This document shows, piece by piece, positions 1 to 64,000 of a stretch of DNA of 64,000 nucleotides (the first letter of the stretch is position 1; each line of letters opens with the position of its first letter). Origin of the DNA: Promethearchaeati archaeon SRVP18_Atabeyarchaeia-1 (GTDB lineage: Archaea; Asgardarchaeota; Atabeyarchaeia; Atabeyarchaeales; Atabeyarchaeaceae). The notes under the pieces were generated by a model. The model was not told the DNA's origin. It did no database searches and worked only from the letters and a program-made list of their open reading frames with translations. The DNA lies in assembly GCA_037308085.1 (NCBI GenBank), contig CP147779.1:320001-384000 (forward strand), read 5' to 3'. The position numbers and the translations under genes were made by a program.

Positions 1-707
1 TCGCTGTTGCTCATCAGGGTGAATCGGTCCAAACTTGAAAGACGCCAATTCATCGCAGGGTCTGAACTCAAGCCAGTTTCAAGCGCGTGTATGTTCCGCG
101 TCTGATCCTGAAAACAATCCTCAATCCTATCAAAACCCGACCTAGACCCAAACAAACTGAAAAACGGCGTCCACACGTGTGCTGGGATTACCTCATTCCA
201 CTGGTCAATCTCTGTTATGATCGCCGTGAGTTCTGCCGCAGTTACCTTAAGCTTTGGTCTTCCATCCGAATTGAGGTCACCGTATTTGGAGATTCTATCG
301 TTTATCTGCTTCGCAACTTCAAGGTTCGGGCATAGAACTAGAAGGTGAATTCTCTTTGCCTTTTCCTCCCAAGTGAACTCTGTGTCAACTTCTCCAGTTA
401 CCATGAAAAGGGTCGATCCCGATACGCCCCGACCGGTCTTTAAGGTGTACAGCCCGCTCTTGTCAACCTCGGAAAGGGACGATTCACATTCCGTGAGCCA
501 TCTCGGCGAGGTAAAGTGGAGACTCACCTACCTTAGCTTGCCGAAGCATTACATAATGCAGGTCGAGTTGTCTCCTGTGCCGAGAAGACTCAAACCCTTG
601 ACCCTAGCCTGTCTTTCAAGATTGACCAGATTCATGTCTTGGCTGGTAGCCGCCGAATACTTGCTATGAATATGGAGATCTGCGACGACCCTCAGATGGC
701 TGTCCAC
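1..707 (-). CDS. Endonuclease Q family (PHP-domain, TIGR00375-like) protein, interrupted by a 54-nt BHB intron at 516-569; 3' end runs off the window
   Basis: Manual translation from GTG at 707: (M)DSHLRVVADLHIHSKYSAATSQDMNLVNLERQARVKGLSLLGTGD|FTSPRWLTE...TGEVD...RIHLLV...DGRPKL...IPAHVWTPFFSLFG...ALETGLSSDPAMNWRLSSLDRFTLMSNSD. These are EndoQ hallmark motifs. Absent from the ORF track. Confidence 0.9.
516..569 (-). other. BHB intron in endoQ mRNA (54 nt)
   Basis: Central helix GGAG/CUCC, bulges AC^A and AC^U, intron stems ACUC/GAGU and ACCUGC/GUAGGU, exon stem UCUCGGC/GCCGAGA. Contains in-frame TAA and TAG. Removal joins GTGD to FTSPRW in frame. Confidence 0.85.
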
Positions 708-62468: not shown

Positions 62469-63014
62469 ATGGACTCAGGCATAGTCATAGTGATTGGAGG
62501 ATTGCATGGGACTGGCAAGAGTACTTGCGCGAGGCTGCTGGCCGAGAAGCTCAGTCTTCGGTATGTCTCTTCCGGAGGAATCTTTCGTTCGATCGCTAAT
62601 CAAAAGAAAATGACGATTGAGGAGCTTAGCAAGTACGCCGAGAAGCACCATGAGATCGATCGGGAAGTGGATTCCGAGGTGGTTCGAGCCTCGAGAGAAG
62701 GAAACATCGTTATTGAGGGGCAGATTGCGGCGGGTCTTGTCGAGGCGCCGGACATCAAAGTCTTCCTAACTGCTTCCGAGACTGTAAGGATCGACAGGTT
62801 GTCCTGTCGAGACAGGAAGAGTAAGGAAGAGTCATTAAGAGAGACAAAGTTGCGGGAAGCCAGCGAGAGGCGGAGATACATGGAAACCTACGGCATCAAT
62901 GTATCTGATCTCTCAGGCTACAATCTCGTCATAGACACATCCAAATGGTCAGCTGAAGCAGTCACAAGGATAATTGAGAGGTCCGTCGAGGAGTACCTTA
63001 AAGGAAAGGCTTAA
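62469..63014 (+). CDS. cmk: Cytidylate kinase (archaeal type)
   Basis: GLHGTGKST, S.G.IFR, ID..D, RE..E..RY..YGI. Confidence 0.9.
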   Translation: MDSGIVIVIGGLHGTGKSTCARLLAEKLSLRYVSSGGIFRSIANQKKMTIEELSKYAEKHHEIDREVDSEVVRASREGNIVIEGQIAAGLVEAPDIKVFLTASETVRIDRLSCRDRKSKEESLRETKLREASERRRYMETYGINVSDLSGYNLVIDTSKWSAEAVTRIIERSVEEYLKGKA

Positions 63015-63150: not shown

Positions 63151-63432
63151 ATGGCAGCCATCGAAATTGGTAGAATCTGCGTTAAGACGCACGGAAGAGA
63201 AGTGGGGAGTAAGTGCGTTGTCGCTGACCTTATCGACGACAATTTCGTTCTCATAACTGGACCCAAAGATCTCAATGGAATCAAGAGGCGCAGAGTAAAT
63301 ATCAAACACATAGAAGCTACGAGCGACAAGATCAACCTGAAGAAAGGGGCCAGTGACGAAGAAGTCAAGAAGGCCTTACAGGCGGCCGGAAAACTCGAAA
63401 GCATGAACGAGAGGATCAAGATAAAGGCATAG
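63151..63432 (+). CDS. rpl14e: Ribosomal protein eL14
   Basis: IEIGRICVK..GRE.G..CV...ID.NFVL.TGP...G.KRR..N..H.E. Confidence 0.95.
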   Translation: MAAIEIGRICVKTHGREVGSKCVVADLIDDNFVLITGPKDLNGIKRRRVNIKHIEATSDKINLKKGASDEEVKKALQAAGKLESMNERIKIKA

Positions 63433-63547: not shown

Positions 63548-64000
63548 ATGTGTAAGGTGGTTTCAGCTATGAAAGAGTCGAAGCTTCCGTATGATGTTAA
63601 GAGAGACTTGTTGAGAAAGACTCGTGATCAAACTGACAGCAGGCATGGGTGCGATCCGTCCAAGCGCCAGATCAACGAGTATGTTAGCAAGGGCGTGATC
63701 AACCTTGACAAGCCGGCAGGGCCTACTAGCCATGAAGTCGTTGCCTGGATAAAGAAGATCTTCGGAATAGAGAAGGCCGGTCACGGTGGGACTCTAGAGC
63801 CACTCAGTGCGCACAACTCCGCATCGAGCGGTGGGGTAATCCTAGGGTGACTGGACTTCTTCCAGTGACTTTGAGCAGCGCGACTAGGCTTGTTCAGGCA
63901 ATTCTGCCTGCAGGTAAGGAATATGTCTGCGTTATGACGCTTCACGGAGATGTCCCAGAAAAGAAACTAGTTGAAGTTTGTAACGAGTTTGAAGGACCGA
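63548..64000 (+). CDS. cbf5: Cbf5 H/ACA pseudouridine synthase, interrupted by a 41-nt BHB intron at 63798-63838; runs off the window
   Basis: LDKP.GPTSHEV..W.K...AGHGGTL|[10 protein letters not shown]...KEYVC.M.LH after splicing; the unspliced frame stops at 63850. Confidence 0.93.
63798..63838 (+). other. BHB intron in cbf5 mRNA (41 nt)
   Basis: Exon stem GGGA/UCCU, central helix CUCU/GGGG, bulges AG^A and UA^A, intron stem GCC-CUC/GAG-GGU. It splits the catalytic Asp codon G|AU. Confidence 0.9.

Follow-up and report, generated by a model that had tools for sequence, protein, structure and literature searches.

A predicted bulge-helix-bulge intron splits the catalytic aspartate codon of cbf5 in the Asgard archaeon Atabeyarchaeia-1

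We analysed a 64,000-nucleotide stretch of DNA (hereafter the window), which corresponds to positions 320001-384000 of the complete 2,808,651-bp genome of a wetland Asgard archaeon, Atabeyarchaeia-1. We consider it very likely, with a probability of about 93%, that window positions 63798-63838 on the plus strand are an archaeal endonuclease-type intron, of the bulge-helix-bulge (BHB) kind, in the pre-mRNA of the sole cbf5 gene. In the proposed pathway, exon and intron bases of the transcript would fold into a helix-bulge-helix-bulge-helix, the tRNA-splicing endonuclease EndA would cut each 3-nt bulge 3' of its second base, and RtcB would join the exons, so that the GAU codon of the catalytic aspartate is recreated. 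Cleavage and ligation would thus take place on the cbf5 mRNA itself. Only the joined exons would allow translation of the whole of Cbf5, which is the catalytic subunit of the H/ACA pseudouridylation RNP.

The gene, the intron and the splicing machinery

The cbf5 gene is adjacent to two others in the order cmk, rpl14e, cbf5. The cmk gene encodes an archaeal (d)CMP kinase (62469..63014, plus strand; TIGR02173, 171 bits) and rpl14e encodes ribosomal protein L14e (63151..63432, plus strand; NF003320, 127.8 bits). We place the start of cbf5 at ATG 63569 (+), about 10 nt downstream of a Shine-Dalgarno-like GGTGG motif; the resulting start MKE.KLPYD is common to three Atabeyarchaeia genomes. An alternative in-frame ATG at 63548 was rejected as the start and is not conserved among the relatives. 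From ATG 63569 the frame reads ...GHGGTL and, without splicing, reaches a stop at 63848-63850. Removal of the 41 frameshifting nucleotides from 63798 to 63838 gives ACT CTA G|AT CCT AGG GTG ACT GGA, which is read as T-L-D-P-R-V-T-G, and the spliced junction is ACTCTAG|ATCCTAGG. The spliced ORF encodes 333 amino acids and reads on past the end of the window, its last base being genome position 384611. The initial annotation had described a 41-nt frameshifting insert between GGTL and DPRVTG at this very place, and its claim that splicing recreates the catalytic GAU codon is borne out by the joining of G|AT and by the 333-residue Cbf5 that results.

Exon 1 (63569..63797, plus strand) comprises 76 codons and the G of the Asp codon, and it encodes the DKCLD domain and the start of the TruB fold (TIGR00425, Pfam DKCLD). 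Exon 2 (63839..64000, plus strand, continuing past the window to window-equivalent position 64611) opens with the AT of the Asp codon and matches TIGR00425 and Pfam TruB_N, TruB_C_2 and PUA. In NCBIfam model TIGR00425 (Cbf5), exon 1 aligns with positions 6-69 and exon 2 with positions 71-320, with a score of 345.9 bits against a cut-off of 238; NF003280 is likewise over its cut-off. The one TIGR00425 position absent between the exons is the Asp whose codon is split as G|AT. The intron is therefore in phase 1. A tblastn search with the spliced protein against the whole complete genome found no second cbf5 copy. Between the cbf5 exons of the three Atabeyarchaeia genomes, pN is 0.12-0.15 and pS is 0.80-0.86, synonymous differences being saturated; judged from these rates, the exons are under purifying selection. 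The Asgard type of the genome, which the initial annotation had recognised, agrees with the taxonomy of its relatives: Promethearchaeati archaeon LC30 belongs to the same genus and CP147778.1, Ca. Freyarchaeota, to the same phylum.

The minimum-energy fold of 63785-63852 is a strict helix-bulge-helix-bulge-helix, that is, a canonical 3-4-3 BHB (all elements on the plus strand). Its exonic 5' strand (63787..63795) contributes UGGGA (63787-91) to the outer helix and CUCU (63792-95) to the central helix, and is followed by the 5' bulge AGA (63796..63798). Then come the intron-internal hairpin (63799..63832), which consists of the inner helix h' and a loop and is present in the centroid structure too, the intronic 3' strand of the central helix, GGGG (63833..63836), the 3' bulge UAA (63837..63839), and the exonic 3' strand of the outer helix, UCCUA (63840..63844). 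The outer helix (UGGGA/UCCUA) has 5 bp and the central helix (CUCU/GGGG) 4 bp, and each bulge lies 3' of its central-helix strand. The inner helix beside the 5' bulge has just 3 bp and is followed by a 1-nt internal loop, a point against the intron reading. Cutting after the second base of each bulge places the predicted cuts after 63797 and after 63838 (63797|63798 and 63838|63839), and these are the boundaries that were set independently by protein homology. The BHB junctions that had been proposed for the insert are thus upheld by both the fold and the rule-based cuts. As a separate observation, in a 101-nt fold of 63770-63870 (-42.8 kcal/mol) the outer helix is longer by about 14 exon-exon pairs (GAGAAGGCCGGTCAC with GTGACTGGACTTCTTC).

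The genome contains genes for the enzymes that such splicing would use. Two genes, at L121:1474-2103 (minus strand) and L122:1084-1809 (plus strand), encode EndA-domain proteins of 209 and 241 amino acids. The 209-residue protein is closest to crenarchaeal catalytic subunits, those of the crystallised EndAs 3P1Z, 3AJV, 2CV8 and 2ZYZ, which are the Aeropyrum, Sulfolobus and Pyrobaculum enzymes. When the 241-residue protein is aligned with M. jannaschii EndA, Thr replaces the His of KEHS (KKTS), a His that belongs to the catalytic triad. One RtcB ligase gene is present (L123; 583 bits). EndA of this organism is probably an (alpha-beta)2 heterotetramer, a type that its two paralogues would fit; such enzymes have been associated with cbf5 introns and with a relaxed specificity for the BHB (PMC2738675; PMC5829648).

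Distribution of the intron and covariation of its helix

We searched 41 genomes from the phylum of Atabeyarchaeia-1 with the Cbf5 model and inspected the loci. An intron at the same site was found in 12 of the 41 genomes, in five Asgard families. The family of Atabeyarchaeia-1 itself (f1; Atabeyarchaeia / LC30) has introns of 41, 41 and 41 nt. Those of family f7 (Jordarchaeales MAG) have 29 and 30 nt, those of family f15 35, 35 and 30 nt, that of family f17 26 nt, and those of family f18 32 and 32 nt, the last family being represented by Ca. Freyarchaeota CP147778.1 (SRVP19, complete, 3,576,204 bp). In the three Atabeyarchaeia genomes the length is constant at 41 nt and the interior is just 37-56% identical. 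Two further genomes (G035 and G016; loci L038 and L039) were rejected as carriers; in these the flagged stop lies outside the aligned core and the Asp site has no intron.

A wider draw of 201 genomes from 26 families showed split or stop-bearing cbf5 matches at the Asp site in no further family, in a table from which in-frame inserts without a stop would escape. Among 80 named loci (GTDB species representatives), an intron of 17-33 nt is found in nearly all Bathyarchaeia and in some 'Thermoprotei' MAGs. About 50 named loci have the same-site intron, mostly those of Bathyarchaeia, and none was seen in the sampled Hadarchaeota, Hydrothermarchaeota, Hod-, Wukong-, Thor- and Hermod-archaeal cbf5 loci. 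The overall length range of the same-site intron is 17-41 nt. The initial annotation had suggested mapping the intron across TACK and Asgard cbf5 genes, and the same-phylum genomes together with the Bathyarchaeia loci extend its range to Asgard archaea and Bathyarchaeia. Some versions at the Asp site are in frame: 30-nt introns occur in Jordarchaeales and family f15 (L010:1697-1726, plus strand; L021 and L096). A stop codon lies within those of L010 and L021; the Cbf5 protein of L096 is the same as that of L010. In-frame cbf5 introns without a stop would be translated through unnoticed by gene callers.

Two other kinds of insertion were observed in Asgard cbf5 genes. In another Asgard genus (G013, G080 and G044), in which the catalytic Asp codon has no intron, a second intron site is occupied by 41-42 nt in phase 0. 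This insert falls between the Asp of I-N-L-D and the next Lys, with the BHB CUGG-AUA...CCAG-AAA (L029:1463-1503, and L125 and L129 at reverse-strand coordinates 1275-1316 and 1615-1656, the gene being on the minus strand). Two of the three second-site inserts keep the reading frame; in both genomes concerned, the match to cbf5 contains in-frame TGA stops. Separately, Cbf5 of four Asgard genomes (G071, L126:1996-3474; G139; G064; G044) has an in-frame insert of about 490 aa at profile position ~174. It matches Intein_splicing and LAGLIDADG_3 and is therefore an intein.

A BHB-like fold is in itself common. The fold energy of the cbf5 intron region is ordinary (z = 0.16), so that it is uninformative as a criterion. 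Searching for strict BHBs, defined by a 4/4 central helix, an outer helix of 4 bp or more, an inner helix of 3 bp or more and a length of 12-129, gave 6810 and 7006 motifs genome-wide on the two strands versus 6527 in a codon-shuffled strand. On each strand there is roughly one such motif in 400 nt, about as often as in the codon-shuffled control, and because they are equally frequent in the real and the shuffled genome, structure alone proves nothing. At a density of ~0.0024 per position over 118 lengths, a BHB at one prescribed boundary pair is expected at ~2e-5.

The behaviour of the helix among homologues is what decides the matter. In 59 of 60 distinct intron sequences, every pair of the central helix is formed. 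Over the 60 sequences, pair 2 is C:G in 31, U:A in 23 and A:U in 4, and pair 3 is C:G in 55 and U:A in 5, so that the two variable positions show five pair types in total. When the intronic strand was slid by 1-3 nt, 0-1 sequences were fully paired; with shuffled partners the mean was 36 and the maximum 44. The exonic strand of the helix includes the last base of the Thr codon and the first base of the Leu codon, and therefore synonymous changes in the exon are matched by changes in the intron; the GGGG strand at 63833..63836 covaries with these positions. The central helices of Atabeyarchaeia are CUCU/GGGG, CUUU/GAAG and CUCU/AGAG, and within this group a synonymous CTA to TTA change is paralleled by G to A in the intron. 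Almost all 60 homologous introns have AGA or UGA as their 5' bulge, while the sequence of the intron-internal hairpin is not conserved among the relatives.

Codon choice around the site follows the same structure. Intron-bearing cbf5 genes almost always use GGG (Gly), GAT (Asp) and CCC or CCT (Pro), which form the outer helix GGGA/UCCC, whereas intronless cbf5 genes use all synonyms at those Gly, Asp and Pro codons. The choice GGG ACN CTA is constrained solely in intron-bearing genes. At the level of comparative sequence evidence, the conserved covariation excludes chance as the source of the cbf5 BHB. An intron census of the Atabeyarchaeia-1 genome would need homology or covariation, a motif search being insufficient.

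Other readings of the insert and other introns of the genome

The unspliced cbf5 frame ends after 100 aa, which is what would be seen if a 41-nt insertion had broken the gene and left it to decay as a pseudogene. The initial annotation had named an intact second cbf5 copy, with this one decaying, as an outcome that would speak against its reading, and that outcome is contradicted: this is the sole cbf5 of a complete genome, and its exons are under purifying selection. An insert of equal length at the same site in three genomes as diverged as their pS values indicate, together with the maintained covariation of the BHB, also argues against decay, and we regard a pseudogene as extremely unlikely. 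The insert has a negligible probability of being an assembly or sequencing artefact, and nothing was found in favour of one. It is present in the independent assemblies of G001 (JAHPYV01) and G002, same-site inserts occur in dozens of other MAGs, and the source genome was manually curated and validated with long reads (PMC11291895).

Two other readings were weighed. The halves could be separate polypeptides that assemble into a split Cbf5, and GTG 63847 does open the downstream frame. The break falls within the catalytic Asp codon, which would leave both halves without this Asp, and the in-frame, stop-bearing 30-nt versions at the site in several relatives fit removal of the insert, not splitting of the protein; a split Cbf5 is accordingly rated very improbable. 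In T4 gene 60, a short hairpin-bearing insert is bypassed by the ribosome. The cbf5 insert is likewise short and has a hairpin, and the ribosome might pass over the 41 nt by translational hopping or recoding. Four metatranscriptome runs from the associated studies gave no reads at the cbf5 locus, a result that speaks neither for nor against splicing. Matching take-off and landing codons are absent, however, and the break is inside a codon (G|AT). The covariation tracks the BHB register exactly and is lost on a 1-nt slide, and the exon bases on either side are constrained to pair. Moreover, unpublished cDNA sequences of the authors of PMC2738675 are said there to show that the crenarchaeal homologue of the insert is taken out of the RNA. 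We therefore hold ribosomal bypass to be very unlikely, and the BHB intron remains our preferred reading.

The initial annotation had also expected more introns genome-wide and had proposed a scan of the genome for BHB motifs at breakpoints of conserved genes. We scanned for frames merged by a BHB, with a strict BHB, at least 60 open codons on each side and an early stop in the unspliced frame as filters. The scan recovered cbf5 and gatE; it fell short as a detector, since its 386 candidates were mostly adjacent genes or nonsense frames. None of pcm, L39e, glyA, valS and endoQ gave a candidate that passed the filters. The gatE gene has a 41-nt strict BHB intron in phase 1 at genome 2219068-2219108 (+) (L124:468-508). 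Profile NF003107 is matched over positions 3-86 before this intron and 88-578 after it, so one residue is split. In endoQ (TIGR00375-like), an in-frame 54-nt insert with two stops lies between LLGTGD and FTSPRW at window positions 516-569 on the minus strand. A 50-nt strict BHB at this insert was rejected because splicing at it would leave the frame broken; the true motif must accordingly be a relaxed one. With gatE and the endoQ insert, the expectation of further introns is supported.

Relation to known introns and possible origin

Introns in cbf5 were the first to be described in archaeal protein genes. The crenarchaeal cbf5 intron is known from Aeropyrum pernix, Sulfolobales and Desulfurococcales (Watanabe 2002; Yoshinari 2006; Yokobori 2009, PMC2738675). 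It interrupts the catalytic Asp codon after the first base (Yokobori 2009, PMC2738675), so the statement of the initial annotation that introns at this cbf5 position occur in Crenarchaeota holds for both site and phase. The cut after the second bulge base is the rule stated for cbf5, the insert interrupts the catalytic codon and requires splicing, in-frame variants exist, and the intron borders were confirmed in several species by the authors' unpublished partial cDNA sequences (PMC2738675). Since the crenarchaeal intron lies at the same Asp-codon site, the Atabeyarchaeia-1 intron is an element of an already known kind. The two share the gene, the position in the Asp codon, the phase and the cleavage rule, and both are short, with a variable interior and in-frame variants; Atabeyarchaeia-1 also has a two-paralogue EndA, like the crenarchaeal hosts. 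They differ in the host, which here is an Asgard archaeon (Atabeyarchaeia), and in the BHB, which is canonical 3-4-3 in Atabeyarchaeia-1, whereas most crenarchaeal cbf5 ones were called 'unconventional' (PMC2738675).

The cbf5 intron also resembles the BHB introns of archaeal tRNA and rRNA, with which it shares the recognition motif and presumably the enzymes, EndA and RtcB. Unlike these, it lies in coding sequence and its removal is needed to restore the frame. A splicing-endonuclease substrate of BHB type in mRNA has a parallel in the mRNA processing of Haloferax volcanii (PMC7714728). The complete 'Atabeyarchaeia-1' genome was reported as 2.81 Mbp, LC30 being the database label of the lineage, with introns in 92-95% of tRNA genes (PMC11291895). 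The tRNA genes of Atabeyarchaeia and Freyarchaeia are exceptionally intron-rich (PMC11291895; bioRxiv 10.64898/2026.10.13.758758); neither that paper nor the 2026 Asgard tRNA-intron preprint mentions cbf5. The tRNA-intron-rich Atabeyarchaeia, Freyarchaeia and Jordarchaeia are among the carriers of the cbf5 intron. The Haloferax volcanii case reportedly concerns an untranslated region, not a coding sequence whose frame depends on splicing. In the searchable non-subscription literature, we found no paper on a cbf5 intron in Asgard, Bathyarchaeota, Lokiarchaeota or Korarchaeota.

The 2009 study saw the intron in no groups but Desulfurococcales and Sulfolobales and argued that it had been gained by the ancestor they share (PMC2738675). 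On the sequence comparisons above, this published range, with its single gain, is too narrow. On the Cbf5 tree at least 10 changes of intron state are required, in a tree whose deep nodes are weak and whose root is unknown, and the intron interiors share nothing beyond the BHB. It is a tentative and rather doubtful proposal that the Asp-codon intron goes back to one ancient insertion before the split of Thermoproteota (TACK) and Asgard, kept in lineages whose EndA has a broad specificity and lost many times in others. The data allow equally well that the intron was gained several times independently at a hot spot. Such a hot spot is conceivable because the G-T-L-D-P codons themselves can form the outer BHB helix GGGA/UCCC. 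With the Asp site occupied across Bathyarchaeia and in five or more Asgard families, the choice between an ancient and a recurrent origin becomes testable. If the ancient insertion were true, an endonuclease-spliced mRNA intron would already have been present in the archaeal stem of the eukaryotic host lineage.

Among the mRNA introns of this genome, that of cbf5 can serve as a soundly based positive control for less expected ones such as those of gatE and endoQ. Cbf5 is the catalytic core of H/ACA pseudouridylation, and in Atabeyarchaeia-1 it would be makeable only if the tRNA-splicing enzymes process its mRNA. Because Cbf5 would depend on splicing in this way, gene callers may be expected to report a truncated or split gene in intron-bearing Asgard archaea, and likewise in most Bathyarchaeia.
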